Below the pieces are notes generated by a model. That model was given only the letters and a program-made list of their open reading frames with translations, searched no databases and was not told where the DNA came from. Made by a program: the position numbers and the translations under genes. Below, in pieces: positions 4,735 to 64,000 of a DNA stretch of 64,000 nt (its first letter is position 1; every line of letters starts with the position of its first letter). Source of the stretch: Nemertoderma westbladi (lineage: Eukaryota; Animalia; Xenacoelomorpha); the NCBI GenBank assembly GCA_032718475.1, contig JAUCBJ010003471.1:12830-76829 (forward strand), given 5' to 3'.

Positions 4735-5517
4735 TGCTATATATTTATTTTCGTTGTTCTAAATAATTCGCTACTGAGATATATGAAGATCAAATAGTTC
4801 TAGAACTAAGTAGCAAGTTACTGTATTATCGTTTTAATATAACAACAATTTATTGTTTCTTTGGAGATTCAACAGAACCGCTTTTAAGTAACACAAGACT
4901 ACCGCCTACTTCTACTGGTGTGGTATAATGGTTTGGATTTTGGTTTATTCTTTTAGGGTTGGTTGGTCAGGTAAGACTAGGTTATCATTTTACCATGCAT
5001 ATTCACAAGACATCAGAATAAATAATTAAGATAAACTCATCTCCTCGCATGGTATCCGAAAACCCCTCTCAGTGTTATAATTACAATTAATTACTGTATA
5101 TCTTGACTTGAGGAGTTTTTCATACCATTTATTCTACTAACAAATAACCCGATTTTGTTACCTTGTTAACTTCCATATAACCGTTAATCCGCCGACATCC
5201 TTCGAAATCAGTTCGTTCGAACTGATTCCAGTAGCATCGGAGAAGGACCAGCCTTTCTTCCTAAAATGCGAGAGGATTCGGTTAAACCTCGCGTGTTTCT
5301 ATCTGAATATATATTATGCACGCGGAAGCAACTGACATAAGGATGTAAACGCTAGCCGAAAACCAACAACCACAGCCGACAATCGTTACCGGTATTATGA
5401 ACACAAATTAAACTGGTGTTCGCAAATCTATAATTAACATTCACTGTAGAATGATGGCGCAGTGGCGTTTACACCCCAAATTAACAACCATCTGATATAT
5501 TCCTCACTGGTATTGGT

Positions 5518-43500: not shown

Positions 43501-46500
43501 AGGTTCGATAATGAAAGTCAGCACTCCAAAACCTTGAAAAGTTCGAGAATGGAAGTCAACACTCCAAAACCTTGAAAGGATTGATAATGAAAGTCAGCAC
43601 TCCAAAACCTTGAAAAGTTCGAGAATGGAAGTCAGCACTCCAAAACCTTGAAAGGATTGATAATGAAAGTCAGCACTCCAAAACCTTGAAGGGTTCGACA
43701 ATGAAAGTCAGCACTCCAAAACCTTGAAATGATTGAGAATGAAAGTCAGCACTCCAAAACCTTGAAAGGTTCGAGACTGAAAGTCAGCACTCCAAAACCT
43801 TGAAAAGTTCGAGAATGAAAGACAGCACTCCAAAACCTTGAAAAGTTCGAGAATGGAAGTCAGCACTCCAAAACCTTGAAAAGTTCGAGAATGGAAGTCA
43901 GCACTCCAAAACCTTGAAAAGTTCGAGAATGGAAGTCAGCACTCCAAAACCTTGAAAAGTTCGAGAATGGAAGTCAGCACTCCAAAACCTTGAAAAGTTC
44001 GAGAATGAAAGTCAGCACTCCAAAACCTTGAAAGGTTCGATAATGAAAGTCAGCACTCCAAAACCTTGAAAAGTTCGAGAATGGAAGTCAGCACTCCAAA
44101 ACCTTGAAAGGATTGATAATGAAAGTCAGCACTCCAAAACCTTGAAAAGTTCGAGAATGGAAGTCAACACTCCAAAACCTTGAAAGGATTGATAATGAAA
44201 GTCAGCACTCCAAAACCTTGAAAAGTTCGAGAATGGAAGTCAGCACTCCAAAACCTTGAAAGGATTGATAATGAAAGTCAGCACTCCAAAACCTTGAAGG
44301 GTTCGACAATGAAAGTCAGCACTCCAAAACCTTGAAATGATTGAGAATGAAAGTCAGCACTCCAAAACCTTGAAAGGTTCGAGACTGAAAGTCAGCACTC
44401 CAAAACCTTGAAAAGTTCGAGAATGAAAGACAGCACTCCAAAACCTTGAAAAGTTCGAGAATGGAAGTCAGCACTCCAAAACCTTGAAAAGTTCGAGAAT
44501 GGAAGTCAGCACTCCAAAACCTTGAAAAGTTCGAGAATGGAAGTCAGCACTCCAAAACCTTGAAAAGTTCGAGAATGGAAGTCAGCACTCCAAAACCTTG
44601 AAAAGTTCGAGAATGAAAGTCAGCACTCCAAAACCTTGAAAGGTTCGATAATGAAAGTCAGCACTCCAAAACCTTGAAAAGTTCGAGAATGGAAGTCAGC
44701 ACTCCAAAACCTTGAAAGGATTGATAATGAAAGTCAGCACTCCAAAACCTTGAAAAGTTCGAGAATGGAAGTCAGCACTCCAAAACCTTGAAAGGATTGA
44801 TAATGAAAGTCAGCACTCCAAAACCTTGAAGGGTTCGACAATGAAAGTCAGCACTCCAAAACCTTGAAATGATTGAGAATGAAAGTCAGCACTCCAAAAC
44901 CTTGAAAGGTTCGAGACTGAAAGTCAGCACTCCAAAACCTTGAAAGGATTGAGAATGAAAGACAGCACTCCAAAACCTTGAAAGGATTGAGAATGAAAGA
45001 CAGCACTCCAAAACCTTAAAGGTTCGAGAATGAAAGACAGCACTCCAAAACCTTAAAGGTTCGAGAATGAATGTCAGCACTCCAAAACCTTGAAAAGTTC
45101 GAGACTGAAAGTCAGCACTCCAAAACCTTGAAAGGATTGAGAATGAAAGTCAGCACTCCAAAACCTTAAAGGTTCGAGAATGAATGTCAGCACTCCAAAA
45201 CCTTGAAAAGTTCGAGACTGAAAGTCAGCACTCCAAAACCTTGAAAGGTTCGAGACTGAAAGTCAGCACTCCAAAACCTTGAAAGGTTCGAGACTGAAAG
45301 TCAGCACTCCAAAACCTTGAAGGGTTCGACAATGAAAGTCAGCACTCCAAAACCTTGAAATGATTGAGAATGAAAGTCAGTACTCCAAAACCTTGAAGGT
45401 TCTAGAATGAAAGTCAGTACTCCAAAACCTTGAAGGTTCGAGAATGAAAGTCAGCACTCCAAAACCTTAAAGGTTCGAGAATGAAAGTCAGCACTCCAAA
45501 ACCTTGAAAGGTTCGAGAATGAAAGTCAGCACTCCAAAACCTTGAAATGATTGAGAATGAAAGTCAGCACTCCAAAACCTTGAAATGTTCGAGAATGAAA
45601 GTCATCACTCCAAAACCTTGAAAGGATTGATACTGAAAGTCAGCACTCCAAAACCTTGAAAGGATTGATACTGAAAGTCAGCACTCCAAAATCTTGAAAG
45701 GATTGAGAATGAATGTCAGCACTACAAAACCTTGAAAGGATTGATAATGAAAGTCAGCACTCCAAAACCTTGAAAGGTTCGAGAATGAAAGTCAGCACTC
45801 CAAAACCTTGAAAGGATTGATACTGAAAGTCAGCACTCCAAAACCTTGAAAGGATTGAGAATGAATGTCAGCACTCCAAAACCTTGAAATGATTGAGAAT
45901 GAAAGTCAGTACTCCAAAACCTTGAAATGATTGAGAATGAAAGTCAGTACTCCAAAACCTTGAAAGGTTCGAGACTGAAAGTCAGCACTCCAAAACCTTG
46001 AAAGGTTCGAGAATGAAAGTCAGTACTCCAAAACCTTAAAGGTTCGAGAATGAAAGTCAGCACTCCAAAACCTTGAAATGATTGAGAATGAAAGTCAGCA
46101 CTCCAAAACCTTGAAAGGTTCGAGACTGAAAGTCAGCACTCCAAAACCTTGAAATTGTTCGAAAATGAAAGTCAGTACTCCAAAACCTTAAAGGTTCGAG
46201 AATGAAAGTCAGCACTCCAAAACCTTGAAAGGATTGAGAATGAATGTCAGCACTCCAAAACCTTGAAATGTTCGAGATTGAAAGTCAGCACTCCAAAACC
46301 TTGAAATTGTTCGAGAATGAAAGTCAGTACTCCAAAACCTTAAAGGTTCGAGAATGAAAGTCAGCACTCCAAAACCTTGAAATGTTCGAGAATGAAAGTC
46401 AGCACTCCAAAACCTTGAAATTGTTCGAGAATGAAAGTCAGTACTCCAAAACTTTAAAGGTTCGAGAATGAAAGTCAGCACTCCAAAACCTTGAAAGGAA

Positions 46501-49500
46501 TGAGAATGAAAGTCAGCACTCCAAAACCTTGAAAGGATTGAGAATGAATGTCAGCACTCCAAAACCTTGAAAGGATTGATAATGAAAGTCAGCACTCCAA
46601 TACCTTGAAAGGATTGAGAATGAATGTCAGCACTCCAAAACCTTGAAAGGATTGATAATGAAAGTCAGCACTCCAAAACCTTGAAAGGTTCGAGAATGAA
46701 AGTCAGCACTCCAAAACCTTGAAATTGTTCGAGAATGAAAGTCAGTACTCCAAAACCTTGAAGGTTCGAGAATGAAAGTCAGCACTCCAAAACCTTAAAG
46801 GTTCGAGAATGAAAGTCAGCACTCCAAAACCTTGAAATGTTCGAGAATGAAAGTCAGTACTCCAAAACCTTGAAGGTTCGAGAATGAAAGACAGCACTCC
46901 AAAACCTTGAAGGTTCGAGAATGAAAGTCAGCACTCCAAAACCTTAAAGGTTCGAGAATGAAAGTCAGCACTCCAAAACCTTGAAGGTTCGAGAATGAAA
47001 GTCAGCACTCCAAAACCTTAAAGGTTCGAGAATGAAAGTCAGCACTCCAAAACCTTGAAGGTTCGAGAATGAAAGTCAGTACTCCAAAACCTTGAAAGGA
47101 TTGAGAATGAATGTCAGCATTCCAATCCAAAACCTTGAATGGATTGATAATGAAAGTCAGCACTCCAAAACCTTGAAAGGTTCGAGAATGAAAGTTAGCA
47201 CTCCAAAACCTTGAAAGGTTCGAGAATGAAAGTCAGCACTCCAAAACCTTGAAAGGTTCGAGAATGAAAATCAGCACTCCAAAACCTTGAAAGGATTGAT
47301 AATGAAAGTCAGCACTCCAAAACCTTGAAAGGATTGATAATGAAAGTCAGCACTCCAAAACCTTGAAAGGTTCGAGAATGAAAGTCAGCACTCCAAAACC
47401 TTGAAAGGATTGATACTGAAAGTCAGCACTCCAAAACCTTGAAAGGATTGATACTGAAAGTCAGCACTCCAAAACTTTGAAAGGTTCGAGAATGAAAGTC
47501 AGCACTCCAAAACCTTGAAAGGATTGATACTGAAAGTCAGCACTCCAAAACCTTGAAAGGTTCGAGAATGAAAGTCAGCACTCCAAAACCTTGAAAGGAT
47601 TGATACTGAAAGTCAGCACTCCAAAACCTTGCAAGGTTCGAGAATGAAAGTCAGCACTCCAAAACCTTGAAAGGTTCGAGAATGAAAGTCAGCACTCCAA
47701 AACCTTGAAAGATTCGAGAATGAAAGTCAGCACTCCAAAACCTTGAAATGATTGAGAATGAAAGTCAGCACTCCAAAACCTTGAAAGGTTCGAGACTGAA
47801 AGTCAGCACTCCAAAATCTTGAAAGGACTGAGAATGAATGTCAGTACTCCAAAACCTTGAAGGGTTCGAGAATGAGAGTCAGCACTCCAAAACCTTGAAA
47901 GGTTCGAGAATGAAAGTCAGCACTCCAAAACCTTGAAGGTTCGAGAATGAAAGACAGCACTCCAAATTCTTGAAAGGTTCGAGACTGAAAGTCAGCACTC
48001 CAAAATCTTGAAATGTTCGAGAATGAAAGTCAGCACTTCAAAACATTGAAAGGATTGAGAATGCAAGTCAGCACTCCAAAACCTTGAAATGTTCGAGACT
48101 GAAAGTCAGCACTCCAAAACCTTGAAGGGTTCGAGACTGAAAGTCAGCACTCCAAAACCTTGAAGGGTTCGAGACTGAAAGTCAGCACTCCAAAACCTTG
48201 AAAGGATTGATAATGAAAGTCAGCACTCCAAAACCTTGAAAGGTTCGAGACTGAAAGTCAGCACTCCAAAACCTTGAAATTGTTCGAAAATGAAAGTCAG
48301 CACTCCAAAACCTTGAAGGGTTCGAGACTGAAAGTCAGCACTCCAAAACCTTGAAGGGTTCGAGACTGAAAGTCAGCACTCCAAAACCTTGAAAGGATTG
48401 ATAATGAAAGTCAGCACTCCAAAACCTTGAAGGGTTCGAGACTGAAAGTCAGCACTCCAAAACCTTGAAGGGTTCGAGACTGAAAGTCAGCACTCCAAAA
48501 CCTTGAAAGGATTGATAATGAAAGTCAGCACTCCAAAACCTTGAAATTGTTCGAAAATGAAAGTCAGCACTCCAAAACCTTGAAGGGTTCGAGACTGAAA
48601 GTCAGCACTCCAAAACCTTGAAAGGATTGATAATGAAAGTCAGTACTCCAAAACATTGAAAGGATTGATAATGAAAGTCAGCACTCCAAAACCTTGAAAG
48701 GTTCGAAACTGAAAGTCAGCACTCCAAAACCTTGAAAGGTTCGAGACTGAAAGTCAGCACTCCAAAACCTTGAAAAGTTCGAGAATGGAAGTCAGCACTC
48801 CAAAACCTTGAAAAGTTCGAGAATGAAAGTCAGCACTCCAAAACCTTGAAAGGTTCGATAATGAAAGTCAGCACTCCAAAACCTTGAAAAGTTCGAGAAT
48901 GGAAGTCAGCACTCCAAAACCTTGAAAGGATTGATAATGAAAGTCAGCACTCCAAAACCTTGAAAAGTTCGAGAATGGAAGTCAGCACTCCAAAACCTTG
49001 AAAGGATTGATAATGAAAGTCAGCACTCCAAAACCTTGAAGGGTTCGACAATGAAAGTCAGCACTCCAAAACCTTGAAATGATTGAGAATGAAAGTCAGC
49101 ACTCCAAAACCTTGAAAGGTTCGAGACTGAAAGTCAGCACTCCAAAACCTTGAAAGGATTGAGAATGAAAGACAGCACTCCAAAACCTTGAAAGGATTGA
49201 GAATGAAAGACAGCACTCCAAAACCTTAAAGGTTCGAGAATGAAAGACAGCACTCCAAAACCTTAAAGGTTCGAGAATGAATGTCAGCACTCCAAAACCT
49301 TGAAAAGTTCGAGACTGAAAGTCAGCACTCCAAAACCTTGAAAGGATTGAGAATGAAAGTCAGCACTCCAAAACCTTAAAGGTTCGAGAATGAATGTCAG
49401 CACTCCAAAACCTTGAAAAGTTCGAGACTGAAAGTCAGCACTCCAAAACCTTGAAAGGTTCGAGACTGAAAGTCAGCACTCCAAAACCTTGAAAGGTTCG

Positions 49501-52500
49501 AGACTGAAAGTCAGCACTCCAAAACCTTGAAGGGTTCGACAATGAAAGTCAGCACTCCAAAACCTTGAAATGATTGAGAATGAAAGTCAGTACTCCAAAA
49601 CCTTGAAGGTTCTAGAATGAAAGTCAGTACTCCAAAACCTTGAAGGTTCGAGAATGAAAGTCAGCACTCCAAAACCTTAAAGGTTCGAGAATGAAAGTCA
49701 GCACTCCAAAACCTTGAAAGGTTCGAGAATGAAAGTCAGCACTCCAAAACCTTGAAATGATTGAGAATGAAAGTCAGCACTCCAAAACCTTGAAATGTTC
49801 GAGAATGAAAGTCATCACTCCAAAACCTTGAAAGGATTGATACTGAAAGTCAGCACTCCAAAACCTTGAAAGGATTGATACTGAAAGTCAGCACTCCAAA
49901 ACCTTGAAAGGATTGAGAATGAATGTCAGCACTACAAAACCTTGAAAGGATTGATAATGAAAGTCAGCACTCCAAAACCTTGAAAGGTTCGAGAATGAAA
50001 GTCAGCACTCCAAAACCTTGAAAGGATTGATACTGAAAGTCAGCACTCCAAAACCTTGAAAGGATTGAGAATGAATGTCAGCACTCCAAAACCTTGAAAT
50101 GATTGAGAATGAAAGTCAGTACTCCAAAACCTTGAAAGGTTCGAGACTGAAAGTCAGCACTCCAAAACCTTGAAAGGTTCGAGAATGAAAGTCAGTACTC
50201 CAAAACCTTAAAGGTTCGAGAATGAAAGTCAGCACTCCAAAACCTTGAAATGATTGAGAATGAAAGTCAGCACTCCAAAACCTTGAAAGGTTCGAGAATG
50301 AAAGTCAGTACTCCAAAACCTTAAAGGTTCGAGAATGAAAGTCAGCACTCCAAAACCTTGAAAGGATTGAGAATGAATGTCAGCACTCCAAAACCTTGAA
50401 ATGTTCGAGATTGAAAGTCAGCACTCCAAAACCTTGAAATTGTTCGAGAATGAAAGTCAGTACTCCAAAACCTTAAAGGTTCGAGAATGAAAGTCAGCAC
50501 TCCAAAACCTTGAAATGTTCGAGAATGAAAGTCAGCACTCCAAAACCTTGAAATTGTTCGAGAATGAAAGTCAGTACTCCAAAACTTTAAAGGTTCGAGA
50601 ATGAAAGTCAGCACTCCAAAACCTTGAAAGGAATGAGAATGAAAGTCAGCACTCCAAAACCTTGAAAGGATTGAGAATGAATGTCAGCACTCCAAAACCT
50701 TGAAAGGATTGATAATGAAAGTCAGCACTCCAAAACCTTGAAAGGATTGAGAATGAATGTCAGCACTCCAAAACCTTGAAAGGATTGATAATGAAAGTCA
50801 GCACTCCAAAACTTTGAAAGGTTCGAGAATGAAAGTCAGCACTCCAAAACCTTGAAATTGTTCGAGAATGAAAGTCAGTACTCCAAAACCTTGAAGGTTC
50901 GAGAATGAAAGTCAGCACTCCAAAACCTTAAAGGTTCGAGAATGAAAGTCAGCTCTCCAAAACCTTGAAATGTTCGAGAATGAAAGTCAGTACTCCAAAA
51001 CCTTGAAGGTTCGAGAATGAAAGACAGCACTCCAAAACCTTGAACGTTCGAGAATGAAAGTCAGCACTCCAAAACCTTAAAGGTTCGAGAATGAAAGTCA
51101 GCACTCCAAAACCTTGAAGGTTCGAGAATGAAAGTCAGCACTCCAAAACCTTAAAGGTTCGAGAATGAAAGTCAGCACTCCAAAACCTTGAAGGTTCGAG
51201 AATGAAAGTCAGTACTCCAAAACCTTGAAAGGATTGAGAATGAATGTCAGCATTCCAATCCAAAACCTTGAATGGATTGATAATGAAAGTCAGCACTCCA
51301 AAACCTTGAAAGGTTCGAGAATGAAAGTTAGCACTCCAAAACCTTGAAAGGTTCGAGAATGAAAGTCAGCACTCCAAAACCTTGAAAGGTTCGAGAATGA
51401 AAATCAGCACTCCAAAACCTTGAAAGGATTGATAATGAAAGTCAGCACTCCAAAACCTTGAAAGGATTGATACTGAAAGTCAGCACTCCAAAACCTTGAA
51501 AGGTTCGAGAATGAAAATCAGCACTCCAAAACCTTGAAAGGATTGATAATGAAAGTCAGCACTCCAAAACCTTGAAAGGATTGATACTGAAAGTCAGCAC
51601 TCCAAAACTTTGAAAGGTTCGAGAATGAAAGTCAGCACTCCAAAACCTTGAAAGGATTGATAATGAAAGTCAGCACTCCAAAACCTTGAAAGGTTCGAGA
51701 ATGAAAGTCAGCACTCCAAAACCTTGAAAGGATTGATACTGAAAGTCAGCACTCCAAAACCTTGAAAGGATTGATACTGAAAGTCAGCACTCCAAAACTT
51801 TGAAAGGTTCGAGAATGAAAGTCAGCACTCCAAAACCTTGAAAGGATTGATACTGAAAGTCAGCACTCCAAAACCTTGAAATGTTCGAGAATGAAAGTCA
51901 GCACTCCAAAACCTTGAAAGGTTCGAGAATGAAAGTCAGCACTCCAAAACCTTGAAAGGTTCGAGAATGAAAGTCAGCACTCCTAAACCTTGAAAGGATT
52001 GATACTGAAAGTCAGCACTCCAAAACCTTGAAATGTTCGAGAATGAAAGTCAGCACTCCAAAACCTTGAAATGATTGAGAATGAAAGTCAGCACTCCAAA
52101 ACCTTGAAAGGTTCGAGACTGAAAGTCAGCACTCCAAAACCTTGAAAGGATTGAGAATGAATGTCAGCACTCCAAAACCTTGAAGGTTCGAGAATGAAAG
52201 ACAGCACTCCAAATTCTTGAAAGGTTCGAGACTGAAAGTCAGCACTCCAAAATCTTGAAATGTTCGAGAATGAAAGTCAGCACTCCAAAACCTTGAAAGG
52301 TTCGAGAATGAAAGTCAGCACTCCAAAACCTTGAAAGATTCGAGAATGAAAGTCAGCACTCCAAAACCTTGAAAGGTTCGAGACTGAAAGTCAGCACTCC
52401 AAAACCTTGAAAGGATTGAGAATGAATGTCAGCACTCCAAAACCTTGAAGGTTCGAGACTGAAAGTCAGCACTCCAAAACCTTGAAAGGATTGAGAATGA

Positions 52501-53558
52501 ATGTCAGCACTCCAAAACCTTGAAAGGTTCGAGACTGAAAGTCAGCACTCCAAAACCTTGAAAGGATTGAGAATGAATGTCAGCACTCCAAAACCTTGAA
52601 AGGTTCGAGAATGAAAGTCAGCACTCCAAAACCTTGAAAGATTCGAGAATGAAAGTCAGCACTCCAAAACCTTGAAATGATTGAGAATGAAAGTCAGCAC
52701 TCCAAAACCTTGAAAGGTTCGAGACTGAAAGTCAGCACTCCAAAACCTTGAAAGGATTGAGAATGAATGTCAGCACTCCAAAACCTTGAAGGTTCGAGAA
52801 TGAAAGACAGCACTCCAAATTCTTGAAAGGTTCGAGACTGAAAGTCAGCACTCCAAAATCTTGAAATGTTCGAGAATGAAAGTCAGCACTCCAAAACCTT
52901 GAAAGGATTGATAATGAAAGTCAGCACTCCAAAACCTTGAAAGGATTGATACTGAAAGTCAGCACTCCAAAACCTTGAAAGGATTGATAATGAAAGTCAG
53001 CACTCCAAAACCTTGAAAGGATTGATACTGAAAGTCAGCACTCCAAAACCTTGAAAGGATTGATAATGAAAGTCAGCACTACAAAACCTTGAAAAGTTCG
53101 AGAATGAAAGTCAGCACTCCAAAACCTTGAAAGGTTCGAGAATGAAAGTCAGCACTCCAAAACCTTGAAATTGTTCGAGAATGAAAGTCAGCACTCCAAA
53201 ACCTTGAAAGGTTCGAGACTTAAAGTCAGGACTCCAAAACCTTGAAATGTTCGAGAATGAAAGTCAGCACTCCAAAACCTTGAAAGGTTCGAGAATGAAA
53301 GTCAGCACTCCAAAACCTTGAAAGGTTCGAGACTGAAAGTCAGCACTGAACGTAAGTACTCCACTCTTAGAGATCAAAATCCTCTGAGAAAATCGAGTAA
53401 CGAAAGGCAGCGAATCCGCGAGAAAATACCAATAAAGTGTACAAGAAGGACTCACCATTCTGGTTGCTAAGGTAATTAATGTAGGCCAATACGAGGTCTT
53501 CCTTAGCTCCGTACTTCTTCATTCCCAGTTCAAATATCTTGAATGTGATTTGGGGATC
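10679..53558 (-). CDS. CSTF3: Cleavage stimulation factor subunit 3 (CstF-77 / suppressor of forked), last 8 coding exons; 5' part lies beyond the window
   Basis: Manual join 53558-53456, 19193-19124, 13502-13406, 13123-13025, 11941-11809, 11702-11547, 11092-10939, 10736-10679. All introns are GT-AG with matching phases. Translation [12 protein letters not shown]...[17 protein letters not shown]...[11 protein letters not shown]...[10 protein letters not shown]...PGGIFP...[12 protein letters not shown] matches the recalled metazoan CstF-77 C-terminal half. Confidence 0.96.
10939..11092 (-). CDS. CSTF3: CSTF3 exon ([11 protein letters not shown]...[18 protein letters not shown])
   Basis: Acceptor ttttattcgttag, donor gtttgt, 154 nt open frame, phases fit both neighbours. 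Poorly conserved basic/acidic linker. Confidence 0.82.
11547..11702 (-). CDS. CSTF3: CSTF3 exon ([14 protein letters not shown]...[18 protein letters not shown])
   Basis: Acceptor ccttacag, donor gttcgt, 156 nt. Proline-rich CstF-77 segment. Confidence 0.93.
11809..11941 (-). CDS. CSTF3: CSTF3 exon (DVRNTN...[18 protein letters not shown])
   Basis: Acceptor ctttactctag, donor gtaagt, 133 nt. P.PD..QM.P motif. Confidence 0.92.
11975..12447. repeat. 23-bp minisatellite AAAAAGTCAGGTAGTTCGTGTAT, ~20 near-perfect copies, with degenerate ~21-bp relatives to ~12660
   Basis: Read directly. It lies in a CSTF3 intron and ends ~35 nt from the acceptor. Confidence 0.95.
13025..13123 (-). CDS. CSTF3: CSTF3 exon ([33 protein letters not shown])
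   Basis: Acceptor ctttactag, donor gtaagg, 99 nt, phase 0-0. Confidence 0.95.
13406..13502 (-). CDS. CSTF3: CSTF3 exon ([32 protein letters not shown])
   Basis: Acceptor tttcttacag, donor gtttgt, 97 nt. HAT-repeat motif. Confidence 0.95.
14560..15965. repeat. ~147-150 bp diverged tandem repeat, ~9-10 units, with CGCCCCCTAGCGGC core
   Basis: Core at ~14993, 15140, 15287, 15434, 15582, 15729, 15879. Alternating A/B units give a ~294-bp higher-order period. Confidence 0.9.
16387..16510. repeat. (GACA)n microsatellite
   Basis: About 30 units read directly. Confidence 0.98.
16608..17457. mobile_element. MITE with 18-bp TIRs and probable 8-bp TSD (P- or hAT-like)
   Basis: CAAGGTGTACTAAATAAC ... 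GTTATTTAGTACACCTTG is a perfect TIR pair. Flanks AGTGGATG / AGGGGATG match 7 of 8. Confidence 0.8.
19124..19193 (-). CDS. CSTF3: CSTF3 exon ((E)[22 protein letters not shown])
   Basis: Acceptor tgttttcgcag, donor gtgagt, 70 nt. Highly conserved [13 protein letters not shown]. Confidence 0.96.
20048..20300 (+). mobile_element. tRNA-derived SINE with Nin-domain-like centre
   Basis: A box TGGTGTAGTGG (20055-20065) and B box GGTTCGATCC (20098-20107). Downstream GCCTTGCATCCTTAAGTGGTAGCTAAATGAGTACTGG resembles the recalled Nin/Deu SINE domain. Confidence 0.7.
22601..22806 (+). pseudogene. Decayed LINE (CR1/L2-group) ORF2 C-terminal fragment
   Basis: [12 protein letters not shown]...[13 protein letters not shown], then stop/frameshift, then [16 protein letters not shown]. 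This is the typical post-RT motif VRP.LEY...VW..LE.VQ..FTR..Y..RL..LGL. Confidence 0.75.
22820..22950. repeat. (ATATC)n microsatellite
   Basis: About 23 units read directly. Confidence 0.98.
23787..25084. mobile_element. Foldback element with ~470-bp terminal inverted repeats
   Basis: ACACCGGGCTTGAACCAA... and ...TTGGTTCAAGCCCGGTGT. The arms stay complementary inward to ~24258 / ~24615. Confidence 0.9.
25895..26031. repeat. ~20-21 bp tandem repeat GAATAATTGTTTTTGGGGGAT
   Basis: About 6 units read directly. Confidence 0.85.
26296..27997. mobile_element. Mutator/MULE-like non-autonomous element
   Basis: Long (~200 bp) TIRs GCGTATTCCCAATCCTTAC... / ...GTAAGGATTGGGAATACGC. Exact 9-bp TSD GACCCGTCC at 26287-26295 and 27998-28006. 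Confidence 0.88.
29053..30303. mobile_element. hAT-family non-autonomous element
   Basis: TIR CAGGGGCGGATC / GATCCGCCACTG. Exact 8-bp TSD CCACTCCT at 29045-29052 and 30304-30311. Confidence 0.92.
31056..35265. repeat. GC-rich 27-31 bp minisatellite CCTACACCA(G/C)CCGGGCCCCCACCATTA(GA), ~140 units
   Basis: Read directly. Unit variants change along the array and the plus strand is strongly C-skewed. Confidence 0.97.
35747..37995. repeat. 17-bp AT-rich satellite TTAGATATTAGTTATAG, ~130 units
   Basis: Read directly. Almost no C on the plus strand. Begins ~230 nt after the otopetrin stop. Confidence 0.97.
38225..39817 (-). CDS. OTOP: Otopetrin-family proton channel, single coding exon (~530 aa), nested in the CSTF3 34-kb intron
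   Basis: About 12 hydrophobic segments in two halves. Signatures [13 protein letters not shown]...[15 protein letters not shown] and C-terminal [11 protein letters not shown]. The track start 39832 is TTG; the first ATG is at 39817. Confidence 0.9.
   Translation of the reverse strand: MMNTEAVGDVIPLPVKGRADNDFTTWLSIATSVFYGGFLASLGVAMVIMASMDPSLWDNLVVFLLIITSVGIATGIYLLGVLYPDRRQGNNPFDPHTGNIYLKVATVVFGLGEVIHCVRKPVLILTRESFHQGITYVLWYVLQGILAVVQTLVVCLYSETRVSRTRATSSRFCLLHLVSVNIIGWFGLVASEAMAGVADSHKQNNVLGLFGLLQEDVSDLVDHSYASLIAMSIEFKVAIACFFLMMWMNIGVNKPFGSSNYRVKMHWKVVKQLVKSNRGGLLPGFAIVIGDFALLVCCRFLLSVDNIYIYLPIYHAVLLSLMIVSVVSIVIVLMSLIRFHHRHAEFHELMDVVLLLFSLLITVTSGITICYAIILVLPDNPFNPSSLAIFIFEVLQVSIQAIFLLEAMKRGHRICGPMGRRNCGDKQLITLVFFLNLCFWMHSISEMERPIYHPGILSYFDRRTWAIIRYTTLPFPIFYRFHSTAVLFDIIQHSFIEESRVVGKRKANSCLAEDNISMEVVGKKSDVTDC
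40925..42617. repeat. Patches of ~20-45 bp tandem repeat CCAATATAGAATAATAATACCCATGGTACACCCCCTTT
   Basis: Blocks at ~40985-41237, 41690-41950 and 42535-42617, separated by unrelated inserts. Confidence 0.85.
42122..42190 (+). mobile_element. tRNA-like SINE head or tRNA pseudogene
   Basis: A box TAGCTGAATGG and B box AGTTCGATCC with tRNA-like spacing, but the stems do not pair into a cloverleaf. Confidence 0.5.
43328..53347. repeat. 38-bp satellite GAAAGTCAGCACTCCAAAACCTTGAAAGGTTCGAGAAT, ~10 kb, ~260 units, with higher-order structure
   Basis: Read directly. Rare variants recur at 4210-bp and 4133-bp offsets. Confidence 0.98.
53456..53558 (-). CDS. CSTF3: CSTF3 exon ([34 protein letters not shown])
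   Basis: Acceptor ttttattgtag, donor gtgagt, 103 nt. The phase-1 end joins 19193 to give ...QN-E-DNNTR. Confidence 0.96.
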
Positions 53559-53938
53559 CTACAATAAAATAAATTTTAAATTTATTGTGAGACTCGTTCA
53601 TGTTGCCTTGGTAACTTGACACGAAATACAAAGTACAATCAATGTTTGTAGTCAAGGAATGACGTTTTGGAATCACTTACCTGCCAATAAATAGCCTTTA
53701 GTTAATTTATTTTAAACTTGCTTTGAAGGGCCCATAAACTATTTTCTCTCTAAAAACTCATTGCACTCAACTTTAAACTTATATACGAACAAACTATACA
53801 ACTAATTTAACATTACAGGCTTCAGCTGCAGTGGCTTACTTACTTACCTTATTATTTAAAATAGTATTCCATCTATACCGACACTATATAATATATTAGC
53901 TATGAAGATGTACAGCTGATGTAGATGTATACGGCAAT

Positions 53939-54614
53939 GTAGATGTGGTGGCTTACCTTACTAGTAGTAGTACTTCCATCAAGAGCTATGTAAATGTGGT
54001 GGTTTACCTTACTACAGTAGTACTCCATCAACAGCTATGTAGATGTGGTGGTTTACCTTACTACAGTAGTACTCCATCAACAGCTATGTAGATGTGGTGG
54101 TTTACCTTACTACAGTAGTACTCCATCAACAGCTATGTAGATGTGGTGGTTTACCTTACTACAGTAGTACTCCATCAACAGCTATGTAGATGTGGTGGTT
54201 TACCTTACTACAGTAGTACTCCATCAACAGCTATGTAGATGTGGTGGTTTACCTTACTACAGTAGTACTCCATCAACAGCTATGTAGATGTGGTGACTTA
54301 CCTTACTAGTAGTAGTACTTCCATCAAGAGCTATGTAAATGTGGTGGTTTACCTTACTACAGTAGTACTCCATCAACAGCTATGTAGATGTGGTGGTTTA
54401 CCTTACTACAGTAGTACTCCATCAACAGCTATGTAGATGTGGTGGTTTACCTTACTACAGTAGTACTCCATCAACAGCTATGTAGATGTGGTGGTTTACC
54501 TTACTACAGTAGTACTCCATCAACAGCTATGTAGATGTGGTGGTTTACCTTACTACAGTAGTACTCCATCAACAGCTATGTAGATGTGGTGGTTTACCTT
54601 ACTACAGTAGTACT
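53939..54614 (-). repeat. 49-bp minisatellite derived from a CSTF3 exon 3' end plus 5' splice site, block 1 (~14 units)
   Basis: Minus-strand unit CACCACATCTACATAGCTGTTGATGGAGTACTACTGTAGTAAG|GTAA(A/G)C reads HHIYIA / LMEYYCSK plus a donor. Confidence 0.92.
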
Positions 54615-56007
54615 CAGCCCTCCCAGCCAAAAAAATCGAGAAAAAAAAGGAAAAAAGGATTTTATATTTTCAAAAAAAAAGGAAAAAAAGGATAGGATGC
54701 AGTTAAAAAAAAAGGAAAAAAAGGATCGGATACAGTTCAAAAAAAATGGAAAAACTGAATAGATATTATCTTTACAAAAGTAATAGTAAACATTATGTCT
54801 TTAGTGCTGTTTCTTGATTCTATTTCATTAACTTTACTGTTTATACTATGAAGAATCCCATTAAGAAACGACACTGTTTTAAATGACAGGAAGATATCAA
54901 AGAAAGTTAAAAAATATAAACACGCAGGAAAGAGAACAAAGATCAATGGCAATATAGTTAATATTAATTATAGTTAATATATTAATATTATTATACAGAT
55001 ATTTTCACCTTTTCTGCCTAGTTATCAGAGATGGTCGAGTTCCGCCGATTGATGGTCACTCATTGATAGAGGTTTATCAAACGATTGTAAATATAACTTT
55101 AGTTTGAAAGTGATATAAAAACTTTGGAACGGATTTCCGGTCGCGGCTACATTTATTTAAATAACAAAACTGCTTTTAGACGCAATCAAAATTCAACCAT
55201 CTCCAGGGGAAAACAGATGCAAATATCAGCCGATAACGAGCAAAAATGAAACTGCAACCGTGTTATAGACTTTCTTTTATTGTTTTGGTTAGAATAGACT
55301 GCCACTGCAACCTGTTCCTTTCCCTAAATTGAAAATCATCATTGTTAATTCACAAAGGCGGGTTTTGCGTCAATTATAATAAATCACACGCTAAAAATGT
55401 AGCTGTGGAGAGAACTTTAATATACATATTTTCTGAGACAGAGACAGCCTCTGTCTCAGAAATAAATATATTAAAGTTCTCTCCACAGCTACATTTTTAT
55501 GGTAGCTTAGCTTGTGATTTTTTGTCGATAAAATATCTAATCAAAATATAATAGGCATATGCCCGTCAATCTCTGTTATAACCTTGTCAATATCAGCAGC
55601 AAGCTGAAATTTCAGTTTATCTGCCAATGATTGCTGGGATCTAATGATTTCCATTGGTACCGGTACCGTTAAGTATGATTGCAGATAACAGGAAAATCAC
55701 TTGTCCCGTACATTGTTATATTTGTTTAGTACCAAGTCAAGGACTACTATACTGATAGTCAGACAGTGGTACAGTACCGGTAATTGATTAGACTGCAAGA
55801 CCTGTCCAGCTGTCTCCGCGATGCCTTGTACTGAATAGAATATGTTACACTTACAGCAGGCTATTTTCTGAACTAAAAAAAGGAAAAAAAGGTGTGAAAA
55901 TGGACAAAAAAAAAGGAAAAAAGGAAACATTCTAAAAAAAAAGGAAAAAAAGGAAACGTTCTAAAAAAAAGGAAAAAAAAGGAAAAAAGGAAACTCTGGG
56001 AGGCCTG
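54615..56007. mobile_element. Non-autonomous TIR element inserted in the 49-bp array
   Basis: TIR CAGCCCTCCCAG / CTGGGAGGCCTG (11 of 12). AGTACT is duplicated at 54609-54614 and 56008-56013. Subterminal AAAAAAAGG repeats at both ends. Confidence 0.85.
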
Positions 56008-58577
56008 AGTACTCCATCAACAGCTATGTAGATGTGGTGACTTACCTTACTAGTAGTAGTACTTCCATCAAGAGCTATGTAAATGTGGTGGTTTACCTTA
56101 CTACAGTAGTACTCCATCAACAGCTATGTAGATGTGGTGGTTTACCTTACTACAGTAGTACTTCCATCAACAGCTATGTAGATGTGGTGGTTTACCTTAC
56201 TACAGTAGTACTCCATCAACAGCTATGTAGATGTGGTGACTTACCTTACTACAATGTGGTGACTTACCTTACTACAGTAGTACTCCATCAACAGCTATGT
56301 AGATGTGGTGGCTTACCTTACTACAGTAGTACTCCATCAACAGCTATGTAGATGTGGTGGTTTACCTTACTACAGTAGTACTCCATCAACAGCTATGTAG
56401 ATGTGGTGACTTACCTTACTACAATGTGGTGGCTTACCTTACTACAGTATTACTTCCATCAACAGCTATGTAGATGTGGTGACTTACCTTACTACAATGT
56501 GGTGGCTTACCTTACTACAGTAGTACTCCATCAACAGCTATGTAGATGTGGTGACTTACCTTACTATAATGTGGTGACTTACCTTACTACAATGTGGTGG
56601 CTTACCTTACTACAGTAGTACTCCATCAACAGCTATGTAGATGTGGTGACTTACCTTACTACAATGTGGTGACTTACCTTACTACAGTAGTACTCCATCA
56701 ACAGCTATGTAGATGTGGTGGCTTACCTTACTACAGTTGTAGTACTCCATCAACAGCTATGTAGATGTGGTGGCTTACCTTACTACAACAGTTGTAGTAC
56801 TCCAACAACAGCTATGTAGATGTGGTGGCTTACCTTACCACAGTAGTACTCCATCAACAGCTATGTAGATGTGGTGGCTTACCTTACCACAGTAGTACTC
56901 CATCAACAGCTATGTAGGTAGATGTGGTGACTTATCTTACTACAGTAGTACTCCATCAACAGCTATGTAGATGTGGTGGCTTACCTTACTACAGTAGTAC
57001 TCCATCAACAGCTTATGTAGATGTGGTGGCTTACCTTACTACAACAGTTGTAGTACTCCAACAACAGCTATGTAGATGTGGTGGCTTACCTTACCACAGT
57101 AGTACTCCATCAACAGCTATGTAGGTAGATGTGGTGACTTATCTTACTACAGTAGTACTCCATCAACAGCTATGTAGGTAGATGTGGTGACTTATCTTAC
57201 TACAGTAGTACTCCATCAACAGCTATGTAGATGTGGTGGCTTACCTTACTACAGTAGTACTCCATCAACAGCTTATGTAGATGTGGTGGCTTACCTTACT
57301 ACAACAGTTGTAGTACTCCAACAACAGCTATGTAGATGTGATGGCTTACCTTACCACAGTAGTACTCCATCAACAGCTATGTAGATGTGGTGGCTTACCT
57401 TACTACAGTAGTACTCCATCAACATTCAACAGCTATGTAGATGTGGTGGCTTACCTTACTACAGTAGTACTCCATCAACAGCTATGTACTTATGTAGATG
57501 TCGTGGCTTACCTTACTACAGTAGTTCTCCATCAACAGCTATGTAGATGTGGTGACTTACCTTACTACAGTAGTACTCCATCAACAGCTATGTAGATGTG
57601 GTGACTTACCTTACTACAGTAGTACTCCATCTAACAGCTATGTAGATGTGGTGGCTTACCTTACTACAGTAGTACTCCATCTACAGCTATGTAGATGTGG
57701 TGACTTACCTTACTACAGTAGTACTCCATCAACAGCTATGTAGATGTGGTGGTTTACCTTACTACAGTAGTTCTCCATCAACAGCTATGTAGATGTGGTG
57801 ACTTACCTTACTACAGTAGTACTCCATCTAACAGCTATGTAGATGTCGTGGCTTACCTTACTACAGTAGTTCTCCATCAACAGCTATGTAGATGTGGTGG
57901 TTTACCTTACTACAGTAGTTCTCCATCAACAGCTATGTAGATGTGGTGACTTACCTTACTACAGTAGTACTCCATCTAACAGCTATGTAGATGTCGTGGC
58001 TTACCTTACTACAGTAGTTCTCCATCAACAGCTATGTAGATGTGGTGGCTTACCTTACTACAGTAGTACTCCATCAACAGCTATGTAGATGTGGTGGTTT
58101 ACCTTACTACAGTAGTTCTCCATCAACAGCTATGTAGATGTGGTGACTTACCTTACTACAGTAGTACTCCATCTAACAGCTATGTAGATGTCGTGGCTTA
58201 CCTTACTACAGTAGTTCTCCATCAACAGCTATGTAGATGTGGTGGCTTACCTTACTACAGTAGTACTCCATCTACAGCTATGTAGATGTGGTGACTTACC
58301 TTACTACAGTAGTACTCCATCTAACAGCTATGTAGATGTGGTGGCTTACCTTACTACAGTAGTACTCCATCTACAGCTATGTAGATGTGGTGACTTACCT
58401 TACTACAGTAGTACTCCATCAACAGCTATGTAGATGTGGTGGTTTACCTTACTACAGTAGTTCTCCATCAACAGCTATGTAGATGTGGTGACTTACCTTA
58501 CTACAGTAGTACTCCATCTAACAGCTATGTAGATGTCGTGGCTTACCTTACTACAGTAGTTCTCCATCAACAGCTAT
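56008..58577 (-). repeat. 49-bp CSTF3 exon/donor-derived minisatellite, block 2 (~50+ units)
   Basis: Same unit, with donor variants GTAAGT, GTAAGC and GTAAAC and some internally deleted ~24-bp units. Confidence 0.92.
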
Positions 58578-60139
58578 TGTAAAAGCTTTTGTGGGATAAC
58601 TGATTCGTTTGCTTTGCTAACCAGTTCCCCCCCAGTCGCTGAATACTCTAAAAGGGGATCTATAACTCGAATAGCGCAAGCTACCGGCTTATTGGCTGAT
58701 TTGCTGTACGCAGGTATCTGGGCTCTGTTTAATCGGCCAACCAGCCTAGGAAGGTTGCGTCATAGCCCTGTTTTGTATCTCCCAATAGAATTTGAGTTAG
58801 CCTTGATTTTGACCTATCACAGAGCTACTGAACTGAAATTTTCCTATCTCACTGCTCTTTCTCTGTGTTGAACGGGAGCTTCGTGGAATAAGGGTAGTTG
58901 GTATTCTCGTATAGAGAGGAGTCACGAGTTTATCAAAGCCACGAAAGAACGGCTTTGTAGTGTTTTGTGTTTTCTGCTTTTTAGTCCAACACTAGTAGGT
59001 TTAATTATAAGGACATATATCCTTTAACTGATCTGCAACCACTGCTGACACACGGCTTTTAATAACTGCTGCTAAAATTACCTGCTCAATCGATACTGTA
59101 TACTGCTATTTGTTGTCGGTTATTCATTATATTGGTTGATGAATTATTATATTGGAATAACGAGAAATAACCCCGAAAACCCAATATTCTTGATATACCG
59201 AAGGTAAGAGAGAAAGGTTACCAATAACGATTGTGACTTATGTTAAAGTGGTTTGAAGTGAATCTAATGTTATTTGATAGACCCTACATGAGTCAGTCTG
59301 TGTTCCTTTTATATGTGACTAAAATCAGTGAAGATTGGCAGATTAGTGTGCAGTATTGTGCAGCATTGTGTATGAGTGAGTCTGTTAAAGAAGCAATTCC
59401 TAAAGAATGCGCCATATATGTGAATTATAATTAAGCCATATCGTTGTGAGTAGTTTAAGTCATAACTCTGTTTATATAGATAAAGCGCCACGTCCTAAAG
59501 GAACTGTTAATATTCCCGAAGGTGAATAATATTGTCAGAGATTATATAATACTGTCAGTCGAATAATACATTAGGCTTACATAGCAATAAAATTAAACCG
59601 TCGAACCCAATCTCCCGGGAATATCCAGCGGGTGAATGATCGCGCACAGATTGGTTTCGACTAGTGTAGTGAATCAAATACTTGTCATAGGCTAAAAAGC
59701 GATTTAATATCTAGAAGACATCTTAATTTGGCGGGTTAAACTGCCAAAGGTCTGAAAGCGCGAACATTAAAGGATATAGCTTCTTTATTGCAGTAAGCAA
59801 TAAAGTTGAAAGTACCGGTCAACCGGTAAACCTGAAAGGTACATCTGTAGGTCAGTAGGCCCAACTGCCAGAACCGGTACTGCCGTAGGTCCGTAGGTCC
59901 AACTGCCAGAACCGGTACTTCTGTAGGTCCGTAGGCCTAACTGTCCTAACCGGTACTTCCCGTATAAGTACATTAGTATTATTCGATTTTGATAGTTATA
60001 TACCGGTAGGCCTTAATAATTAATCAGGGACTGCAGCCCTGGTTTTTTATTGAGATTTTTACTTATTTCTGTCAAGTTTTATTTGTTTGTAGGCCAGTAT
60101 TGAACAGAAGGCGTGTAAGCCTGATCAGATTGTACAGAC

Positions 60140-60710
60140 AATTTGTAGGCTGAGCTGTTGTCTGATTGCTGTTAGGTCCGAACGGATTGCAGTGTGTGTA
60201 GATCACCTGTCCGATTAAGTACGGTTAGGAAGTAGGGGCAGCGAATGCTGTAAGGTAAACCCCCAACTAAAGAATAAGTCGTACTACTGGGTTAGAACGC
60301 ATACTCCCTAATCATTTCGGAGTCTGCATGTCCTGTAGTTTATTTAGGCTTGAGAGTAGTCTGCCATCGTTTAGTCTGTACTTTGTTTGTGTAAGTCTGT
60401 ACGGGTAGCGTATAATATTTATTTAGATAATTTGTAGGCTGGATAGTTGTCTGGCTGTTATTAGGTCTGAACGGATTGCAGCGTGTGTAGATCACTTGTC
60501 CGATAAAGAACGGTTAGGAAGTAGGGGCAGCGAACGCTGTAAGGTAAACCCCCAACTAAAGAATAAGTCGTACTACTGGGTTAGAACGCATACTACCTAA
60601 TTATTTCGGAGTCTGCATATACCGTAGTTTGTTTAGGCTTGATAGTAGTCTGTCAGTGTTCGGTCTGCATTTTGTTTGAGTAGTTTGTACGCGTAGCGTA
60701 ATATTTATTA
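60140..60710. repeat. ~290-bp direct tandem duplication in the leader of the putative retroelement
   Basis: AATTTGTAGGCTG...TAATATTTATT at ~60140-60423 and ~60429-60710. The central ~90 bp is almost identical. Confidence 0.9.
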
Positions 60711-62030
60711 TTCAGAGTTTATGCGATTATCCGCAACATTCATTCCCCAAGTTTGTTCCTACAGTAATTGTGTTTGTTATACATACCGCTATAGTTAAAT
60801 TAACCCCGGTACTACACGGGCTGCTTGGCGTAGGTAAAGACTGGTGATTTTGTGCATCGGTCACTCCAGCAGATGCCGTGGTTCTTTTAGCTGTTCAAGT
60901 ATATTTAACTACTGATTATCTGTTGTACAAGTACTCGTACCTAATTTAGGGTTTAGTGTACAGTGCTTTCCGAGAGTAATTAGTGTAGGCATTATATTTG
61001 TGTTGTAAAGTGGTTAATAGGCACGTTCGATTAGCTCTATTAACTTCTAGGTAGGAACACTCCGTGATACATAACGTAGAACCTATAGCGATACGGCTAT
61101 AGGTCGTCAGGCGGTGGTATTTTCCTATCTGGACAACGCAGTGTATTTACTACTACGTATTATTTTCAAATACCGCAGTACCATGTCCGTTGTAATAACC
61201 AGTTTTCTAACCCTTTGTTAGGCTGGTTTGTAGACTTCTTGTAAAATTACCCTGAAATTTCGTATTTGTGTTTTTTGTAAATTTTTGTGTTTAGTTAGAG
61301 ATTGTAATCTCACCCGAATTGTACGTAATTTGTAGTATTAAGTAACTTAGGTAAATTAGTATTATTTGTTTTAGTGTCCTATAAGTAACACTTCACTGAA
61401 AGCGCACCGCTTTGTGTAGTGATTACTCCCCAGAAATAATAACATTTATTTGAAACATTGACTAAACCCATTAAAACGGGTATATATATATTATAAATCA
61501 AATCTAACGATTTATAAATAGTAGGCCTACCATACAACCATTAGGTCTCAATATCAGTTGGATTACTGCTCAAATAACGGTAGTAAAGTAAGTAAAGTAA
61601 TCAAGTAACCCTAAAATACAGAAATTCAATTATTTAAAATAATTGATATACCGGTATTTACGATAGGCCTATTATCTTTATTTCTATAAATTTAGGCTGA
61701 AATTATACCGGTACTTATAATTAATTCTAGTCCAGAATTATATATACTACAAACTGTAAACTGTATACCGGTATTCCCGATAGGCCTATTATATATTTAT
61801 ATATATTTGTGCTAAAATTATACCGGTATTCTGTGATAAACCTAGTCTGTAATAATACTTATATAGTTATATATACCATAAGCATACCGGTGTTCTAATA
61901 TATTATATATATATCCTACTACACTGAGTAGCAGTACCGGTAATTAATTACTAGGCTAGCAGTTAATACTGAGTTACTAGACTTGCTCAGACTGTAATAC
62001 AGCAGTAGACATTCAACTGTATACATAAAC

Positions 62031-64000
62031 ATGTCTGATACTAAGCAGAACCTGTCAGACAGTATATTAGATGTAACTATCTGCGACTCAGATAGAGGCG
62101 TAGAACCTTCTAGTCGTAAGTTCAGTTCACCTCCCACTGTGAGGAAAGCCATCCCTCCAGTAGTAATAAAAGAACCTAGGCTGGTCCAACATCGTAGGTC
62201 TATCATAGGCACTCGAGCTCAGGTCAAACGGGACCAAGAAGCAGCGGAACAGCAACAACCCGCGAGGCAAGAACTTACTTCTCAATGGCCCAACAGCTCC
62301 AGTAGTGAGGATACTGTAGAGCTGACACCCGAGCGCGGAGCAAGGATGACGGATGTGGTTTATTCGGATCCCCTTCTCATCCTTCCTGCAGCCGTACTCA
62401 CTAGGTTATTGATCGCGGTGGAAGAACACCAGATCGATTGGGCGAGAAGTCAACGGTCAACTAGAGATAGTTATGCGGGATACACGAGTGAAGAACTGAA
62501 GTCTATTGTCGAGTCGCAATGGAACTTCCCCGGACCCGGACTCCCGTTTGATTTATCAGAAGCTGCCTGGGAAGACATACACCGGATGGGAGTAGCCAAG
62601 GAAACCATCGATCCAGCTGTGTGGAAGAGGTCCGCAGCCGGATACGCACAGGGATTCTTCAGCTCTATAGAGCGATTAAAAGAACAACTGTTTCATCAAC
62701 CTCAAGGACCTCAAGAGCAGGGATTGCTGCTTTATCAAGTTAGAGAAAGAATTCTACGAATCAGGCTAATCTTATCGGCCTTTGAGGAGGCTTCTAAACG
62801 AAGACAAGACACGTCGTTGCAAGTCGCCGTCAAGACTTGGTTTCAAAGGGTGAATCTCCAGGTTCAAGGAACTGCTCAGTGGAAAGCTCAGCTAGAGGAG
62901 CGATCAACCCATGGAGAATCAACAGACGCTACTTTTTCCCAAGTGGAAAGTGAAGCGACGGCAGAGAAACCGCATAAGAGGGATGCCATTGACATCTATC
63001 TGTCAGACTATCAACGTTTTGTAGGTGATGAAGAGTTGCGGAGAAGACTAGAGGGACTTAGCCCTAATAGTGAAGGAGCACAGCGTGTGCTTGACGCCAT
63101 CGACGTGGATAGGTTAGCGGCTAATCAAGCTAAATTCGATGAACAACTCCGCGTCGTTAAGGTTCAAGAAGAACAAGTAAAGAAAAAACGTATAGAAGAT
63201 AGAAAGAAAGCGGCAGAGGCAGCGGCAGAGGCAGCGGCAGAGGCAAAAGCGGCAGCGGCAGAGGCAAAGGCGGCAGCTGCAGCAGTAGAAGCCGAAAGAA
63301 AGGCGGCCGAAGCGGAAAGAAAAATAGCAGTGGCAGAAGCCGAACGGAGAGCGACTGAAGAAACCACCCAATTAGAATTGGAAAACATTCAGGAGAATCA
63401 AGACTGCATAAATAAACAGTTAACAGCTAGTAATATGCAGATGATGAATCGATCTACTCCCAAAAGACAGGGATATACATCATCTGAGGAAGGCGATACC
63501 ACCGATACTGAAGGCAAGGGAAATAGATCTCGTCTAAGTAGACGTAAAAGAACATTCCACCGTCAGAAATTGCCTGATTTGCCTCCAGCTGTTAGAAGGC
63601 AACTAAATAACACCAACTTAGGTAGTACAGAGCCCACAGACCAAATAATTAAAATAGAAAGACTCCCTACTATAGTAGATGAGCCTGAAATAATTAGGCC
63701 TGTTCTTGAAATCACCCCTTCGGTGATAGACACACCTGTGCTCCCTGAAACTACCTCTAAATTCCCTCTGCATAGCACTAAGCTACCTGTGCCCCGTAGA
63801 ACTGCCCAGGAAACAGTTCAGGTCCTGGACCCCGAGCGAAATATTCCTGATTTGTCGCCCGTTGTCCCTCGTCCGCCCGCTACAACGTTGGCGACTCCCG
63901 CTTCGGCGGTCAAATGGGTGGACGAGAGACGGCGGGGGATGGATCTCCTGCTCGGGCAGATGCAGGAGACTGTTCAGCAATTTAAGGGCACAGTAAGGGA
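62031..64000 (+). CDS. Long ORF (>656 aa, no stop in window), putative retroelement ORF1/Gag-like protein with coiled coil
   Basis: Manual translation from ATG 62031 (MSDTKQNLSDSILDV...) stays open to the window end. It contains an RKKAAEAAAEAAAEAKAAAAEAK Ala/Glu/Lys helix and a Pro/Thr-rich segment. Absent from the ORF track because it has no stop. Confidence 0.75.
   Translation, partial: MSDTKQNLSDSILDVTICDSDRGVEPSSRKFSSPPTVRKAIPPVVIKEPRLVQHRRSIIGTRAQVKRDQEAAEQQQPARQELTSQWPNSSSSEDTVELTPERGARMTDVVYSDPLLILPAAVLTRLLIAVEEHQIDWARSQRSTRDSYAGYTSEELKSIVESQWNFPGPGLPFDLSEAAWEDIHRMGVAKETIDPAVWKRSAAGYAQGFFSSIERLKEQLFHQPQGPQEQGLLLYQVRERILRIRLILSAFEEASKRRQDTSLQVAVKTWFQRVNLQVQGTAQWKAQLEERSTHGESTDATFSQVESEATAEKPHKRDAIDIYLSDYQRFVGDEELRRRLEGLSPNSEGAQRVLDAIDVDRLAANQAKFDEQLRVVKVQEEQVKKKRIEDRKKAAEAAAEAAAEAKAAAAEAKAAAAAVEAERKAAEAERKIAVAEAERRATEETTQLELENIQENQDCINKQLTASNMQMMNRSTPKRQGYTSSEEGDTTDTEGKGNRSRLSRRKRTFHRQKLPDLPPAVRRQLNNTNLGSTEPTDQIIKIERLPTIVDEPEIIRPVLEITPSVIDTPVLPETTSKFPLHSTKLPVPRRTAQETVQVLDPERNIPDLSPVVPRPPATTLATPASAVKWVDERRRGMDLLLGQMQETVQQFKGTVR

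Follow-up and report, generated by a model that had tools for sequence, protein, structure and literature searches.

A minisatellite within CSTF3 of Nemertoderma westbladi that probably derives from the gene's own exon end and splice donor

An intron of the CSTF3 gene of Nemertoderma westbladi contains dozens of sites that resemble the 5' splice site (donor) of a CSTF3 exon, which raises the question of where these sites came from and whether they are used in splicing. The window analysed here, i.e. a stretch of 64,000 nucleotides (nt) from contig JAUCBJ010003471.1, holds them in a minisatellite with a unit of 49 base pairs (bp), which occupies positions 58577-53842 of the minus strand, sense to CSTF3 and directly upstream of the exon that starts at 53558. 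On the strength of the sequence we hold, with good confidence, that this array is a junction-spanning minisatellite derived from an exon, that it is likely neutral and that its extra donors likely go unused. A preliminary description of this DNA had given the unit, its strand, its coordinates and a count of about 65 decoy donors. All of these proved correct, with 69 donor-like sites (AAG|[G/A]TAA) within the repeat units. The parts of the region are as follows.

58578..64000, plus strand: unrelated DNA, starting with TGTA, that cuts the array mid-unit at 58577/58578 and reaches the window end
56008..58577, minus strand: distal block of the array, built of 49-bp units and of variants 23 to 57 bp long
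54615..56007, unstranded: non-coding insert of 1393 bp with 12-bp terminal inverted repeats, splitting one unit
53951..54614, minus strand: proximal block of the array, homogenised, with the weaker GTAAAC as donor at 12/14 sites
53842..53950, minus strand: worn terminal unit of 109 nt, in which HHIYIA ... MEYY is still legible
53559..53841, minus strand: non-repeat intron tail of about 280 nt, opening GTAA GTAA GCCAC
53456..53558, minus strand: CSTF3 exon with a phase-0 start and homology to human CstF-77 residues 425-458

The array, known from one haplotype, consists of about 68 units that follow one another head to tail with a period of 49 bp (length variants 23 to 57 bp), and its 49-mers show a mean identity of 97.9% to their own consensus. 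Hereby, the unit reads HHIYIA, a gap of 5 nt, and LMEYYCSK|GT, i.e. 43 exonic nt followed by 6 nt of donor. A 51-nt variant is present three times (56090, 54346 and 54001), and the proximal block holds a 345-bp block that is duplicated with 99% identity. While the array boundaries had been given correctly, the 1393-bp insert and the truncating DNA had been overlooked; the visible copies are separated from the real exon by at least 5.4 kb of the latter.

The donor-like sites comprise 26 copies of AAG|GTAAGC, 20 of AAG|GTAAGT, 20 of AAG|GTAAAC and three of AAG|ATAAGT, 54 of them in the distal block (25 GTAAGC, 18 GTAAGT, 8 GTAAAC and 3 ATAAGT). Pairing energies with U1, computed against the U1 5' end, amount to -10.6 kcal/mol for AAG|GTAAGT and -9.5 kcal/mol for AAG|GTAAGC, the seven real CSTF3 donors in the window ranging from -6.1 to -10.6 kcal/mol. 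The latter include GTTTGT twice and GTTCGT once, as had been claimed, and AAG|GTAAGT indeed out-pairs these three (-10.6 versus -6.1, -9.1 and -7.0 kcal/mol). The earlier statement that many copies carry this strong donor needs the correction that 23 of the 69 sites are weakened (GTAAAC, -6.8 kcal/mol) or lack GT. No site in the array matches U1 better than AAG|GTAAGTAA at 53847, with which the worn terminal unit closes.

Regarding the origin of the unit, blind searches of PDB and Pfam with its own read-through peptides gave no matches. Eight matching residues are too few for such searches, and the test of origin was therefore based on a positional comparison with orthologues. A degenerate pattern built from the LMEYYCSK-G of the unit was run on metagenome contigs and returned 83 loci, 72 of which have Ala-Ala before the motif and were read as CSTF3 orthologues, while the other 11, being without Ala-Ala ahead of the motif, are likely chance matches and were discarded. 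The conserved Lys is followed by GT in 32 of the 72 loci and by an Asp codon in 40, a split that is valid for loci of this form, as the pattern required a G after the Lys; judged by this split, the phase-0 intron after the Lys is an old position. One intron-free orthologous locus aligns to human CstF-77 over its full length (E 9e-253), and in that alignment human residues 409-424 correspond to HHVYVTAALMEYYCSK and directly precede the segment matched by the exon at 53558-53456 (residues 425-458, E 3.2e-7). Against a profile built from 54 distinct orthologous exon ends, HHIYIA, which is independent of the search pattern, reaches 15.8 bits. Among 83,280 hexapeptides taken from the window as background, one does as well, so the agreement is not due to chance. 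The 5 missing nt of the unit fall within the invariant Ala-Ala codons. Read through the orthologues, not through the host's own exon, the unit covers residues -16 to -1 plus the conserved phase-0 intron. Because the unit encodes the conserved exon-end residues and 32 of the 72 orthologues have GT after the Lys, its derivation from the end of a CSTF3 exon plus the donor is well supported by this comparison, and the orthologues agree with the earlier proposal that an exon end and its donor, 5 nt short, were amplified into the next intron. On this origin, the intact host exon end is predicted to comprise 48 nt and to read HHIYIAAALMEYYCSK|GT. Single exons returned no protein match in word-based searches, and the library searched contained no paper joining CSTF3, minisatellite, intron and splice donor, and none with the peptide string.

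Compared to the modal unit, four of the six substitutions in the worn terminal unit are synonymous third positions (p = 0.10), a hint that it could be an older exon-derived copy. The intron tail is likely the ancestral short intron, given the lengths of the gene's other short introns (106-454 nt). The GTAAGCCAC remnant at 53839-53831 is present as described; it could equally be a truncated last unit as the microhomology seed that had been suggested.

Neutrality is indicated by donor positions that vary like the rest of the unit, by repeats that make up 45% of the gene span and by independent exon-end repeats in two of 54 distinct orthologous loci. For the first point, 3 of 22 variant types lie in the donor 9-mer, with an expected share of 9/49 positions (p = 0.78); conservation of the splice signal was thus not seen in this low-power test. 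Regarding the second, tandem repeats account for 38% of the whole window. The third stems from a repeat survey of the 54 loci, whose coding blocks are separated by about 160 gaps; the survey provides a rough rate for exon-end repeats of 2 per about 160 introns. The two loci are L017 and L040. In L017, which comes from another organism, this exon end and donor of CSTF3 are reiterated in five copies of a 107-bp unit (1408-1929, plus strand). In L040, self-alignment detected three copies of about 147 bp on the reverse strand (about 760-1197) that contain a later CSTF3 exon end with its donor; across 87 nt the third copy shares 95% identity with the real exon, while the second is more diverged. 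A further candidate, L053, was rejected as its repeat begins inside the intron. The array itself is not shared by the orthologous genes surveyed, since a single one of 25 distinct intron-bearing loci, a set with no identified near relative of the host, shows repetition at this donor, and does so with a different unit of 107 bp.

According to the mechanism that we favor, a local tandem duplication across the CSTF3 exon-intron junction would have produced a founder unit while sparing the real exon and its donor. A 5-nt deletion in the founder unit may then have spread via slippage or unequal crossing-over, and the unit variants would have been homogenised block-wise before two mobile elements inserted. 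The 1393-bp insert is likely a non-autonomous DNA transposon, a class assigned by inference; its target is palindromic (AGTACT), and the duplication can be read as 2, 4 or 6 bp. The DNA at 58578..64000 appears from its anatomy (TG start, long open frame) to be an element resembling a long terminal repeat (LTR) retrotransposon, with its far end beyond the window. Its 667-codon frame (61998-63998, first ATG at 62031) is antisense to CSTF3 and still open where the window stops; searches of Pfam, for homologues and of the Atlas gave no significant match for frame or element.

Junction-spanning minisatellites, head-to-tail arrays with units of 10-160 bp, are a described class, and the CSTF3 array is one more large example. 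The closest counterparts are the 'mirage' minisatellites of amphioxus Adh3 and of the globins BflGb6 and BflGb9, which likewise consist of tandem exon-intron boundary copies in an invertebrate gene with block-wise homogenisation; their edge units are divergent and lie outside homogenisation, and normal splicing is described as undisturbed (PMC3087553). Compared to these, the CSTF3 array has about 68 copies (3-6 in BflGb6; PMC3087553), a mostly exonic unit (43/49 nt) with an internal 5-nt deletion, and two insertions that interrupt it. In human F7, a 37-bp variable number tandem repeat (VNTR) in intervening sequence (IVS) 7 also reiterates an authentic donor within the following intron, and similar cases are IFI6 (6-16), CBS IVS13, LMNB2 and PDGF intron 4 (PMC1557585). 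As reported in that work, splicing in such repeats is confined to the donor farthest upstream or to the nearest two, downstream F7 pseudo-donors being silent even when strengthened to a consensus value of 91 (PMC1557585). The F7 VNTR has 5-9 copies with only 4 exonic nt and directly adjoins its exon (PMC1557585), whereas the visible CSTF3 copies lie no closer than 5.4 kb to theirs. As the F7 and amphioxus cases are mostly silent, the array donors are likely silent as well: the spliceosome would commit to the first donor, that of the real exon, and the array copies would be removed with the intron. The array lends itself to testing, in a natural setting, whether the 'first donor wins' in splicing. 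If its donors were used after all, repeat length would determine the amount of a factor with genome-wide control over poly(A) site choice, although none of the present results suggests such use.

Several points weigh against a neutral, unused array of exon origin. Two-thirds of the array donors (46/69) pair with U1 equally well as or better than most real CSTF3 donors, U1 pairing being the strongest argument for a function, perfect-consensus pseudo-donors can compete in F7, and the nearest pseudo-donors are used in IFI6 and CBS (PMC1557585). A CSTF3 exon upstream of 53558 was not found by tblastn within the window, the real one lying beyond 64000. Finally, L017 repeats the same donor as the array. 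The excess at this donor (1/25 versus 1/~135) is not significant, however (p = 0.29), and it is very doubtful that this donor is a recurrent amplification hot spot that feeds unproductive splicing or U1 loading. If it were, copy number would adjust how much of a core 3'-processing factor is made, a repeat-based mode of CstF-77 self-regulation that would be the third after the intronic poly(A) sites of vertebrates and fly.

Alternatively, low and regulated use of the array donors might yield unproductive CSTF3 transcripts targeted to nonsense-mediated decay (NMD), either by exon extension at copies that adjoin the real exon or via pseudo-exons beginning at acceptors of the insert. Hereby, reading through the 66 unit steps gives a stop in 49, a frame shift without stop in 14 and an open frame in 3, so that the premature stop predicted earlier applies to most steps but not to all, while 63 of the 66 would disrupt the frame in one way or the other. 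On the transcribed strand, the insert contributes four polypyrimidine-AG sites that resemble strong acceptors (55960, 55931, 55872 and 55867), with 13-16 T per 20 nt, compared to 9-14 in the real CSTF3 acceptors, and CstF-77 is autoregulated in vertebrates and fly (PMC3708835). Against this, simple exon extension cannot bridge the 5.4 kb or more between the real exon and the visible copies. The strong acceptors are 1.27-1.36 kb from the next array donor, with a nearer donor inside the insert, and the array donors show no conservation. The known CstF-77/su(f) autoregulation shares with the array the gene family, a large intron and the involvement of U1; its elements are a weak donor and a conserved poly(A) site located in intron 3 of the human gene, which has 21 exons, with no repeat described in the sections of that source drawn on here (PMC3708835), whereas the CSTF3 array follows residue 424 of 717 and has many strong donors and no conservation. 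The NMD-coupled splicing offered in the preliminary description is hence very unlikely. The same applies, at an even lower level of credence, to the proposed U1 sink, i.e. an array that loads the U1 small nuclear ribonucleoprotein and shields the long pre-mRNA from premature cleavage and polyadenylation. Sites of -9 kcal/mol or better do reach 9.7 per kb in the array (2.3 per kb in the next intron, 0.18 per kb upstream), and insert and tail together contain five poly(A) hexamers. U1 protection acts over short range, however, and the 54 hexamers of the 34-kb next intron (40 AATAAA, 14 ATTAAA) start about 10.5 kb beyond the last array donor; moreover, in the block closest to the acceptor, drift has left mostly the weak GTAAAC donor (12/14). 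An unrelated 29-bp array in the next intron holds 71 sites of -9 kcal/mol or better, a U1 strength similar to that of the array.

The 5-nt deletion creates an AG-LLMEYYCSK-GT cassette in each modal copy, which would allow single units to act as 27-nt microexons duplicating a helix segment of CstF-77. With 24 exact copies in frame with both flanking exons this is formally conceivable, yet the cassette AG is preceded by only 3 T in 20 nt (9-14 in real acceptors) and lies 16 nt behind the previous donor, leaving next to no credence for this idea. An assembly artefact, or a dispersed satellite present here by chance, is extremely improbable: nested higher-order variants, the recurring 51-nt variant, an insert with target duplication and a worn terminal unit point to real turnover, the unit matches exactly the exon expected upstream, and no other copy of it was found in the 64-kb window, in favor of an exon origin over the genome-wide satellite that had been considered. 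Among the three options originally offered for the array, neutral slippage fits best.

Two further observations concern splice signals in and around the array. A GTAAGT donor at 55854 within the insert forms, together with the four acceptor-like sites (55867-55960, minus strand), candidate pseudo-exons of 13 to 106 nt. Recursive splice sites (ratchet points) were considered and rejected, as no AG of the array passed the T/pyrimidine filter, which left only four AGs, all in the insert.

The remaining CSTF3 exons were located with peptide motifs, and most were then confirmed against full-length orthologues.

19193-19124, 13502-13406, 13123-13025, 11941-11809, 11702-11547, 11092-10939 and 10736-10679, minus strand: seven downstream CSTF3 exons

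The eight exons in the window join into a single open C-terminal half of 289 amino acids, with GT-AG introns of, in order, 34,262, 5,621, 282, 1,083, 106, 454 and 202 nt. About half of the 34-kb intron is occupied by three further large minisatellites, at 43329-53347 (38 bp x 264), 35748-37995 (17 bp x 133) and 31056-35205 (29 bp x 143), the 38-bp array beginning about 110 nt past the donor at 53455. A 23-bp array (x 21, 11975-12448, minus strand) ends about 35 nt ahead of the acceptor at 11941; each of its units contains a branch-point-like CTGAC followed by a T run, and it is possibly an amplified branch-point region. Branch-point-like pentamers also occur in the 38- and 17-bp arrays.

Just downstream of CSTF3 lie two tandem, closely similar intronless open reading frames (ORFs) of about 400 codons (3532-4758 and 7598-8806, minus strand), which resemble G protein-coupled receptors by eye and have no Pfam match at E 0.05. 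An intronless ORF of 536 codons that belongs to the otopetrin family (38225-39835, minus strand; Pfam PF03189, E 1.6e-30) sits inside the 34-kb CSTF3 intron and shares the strand of its host gene.

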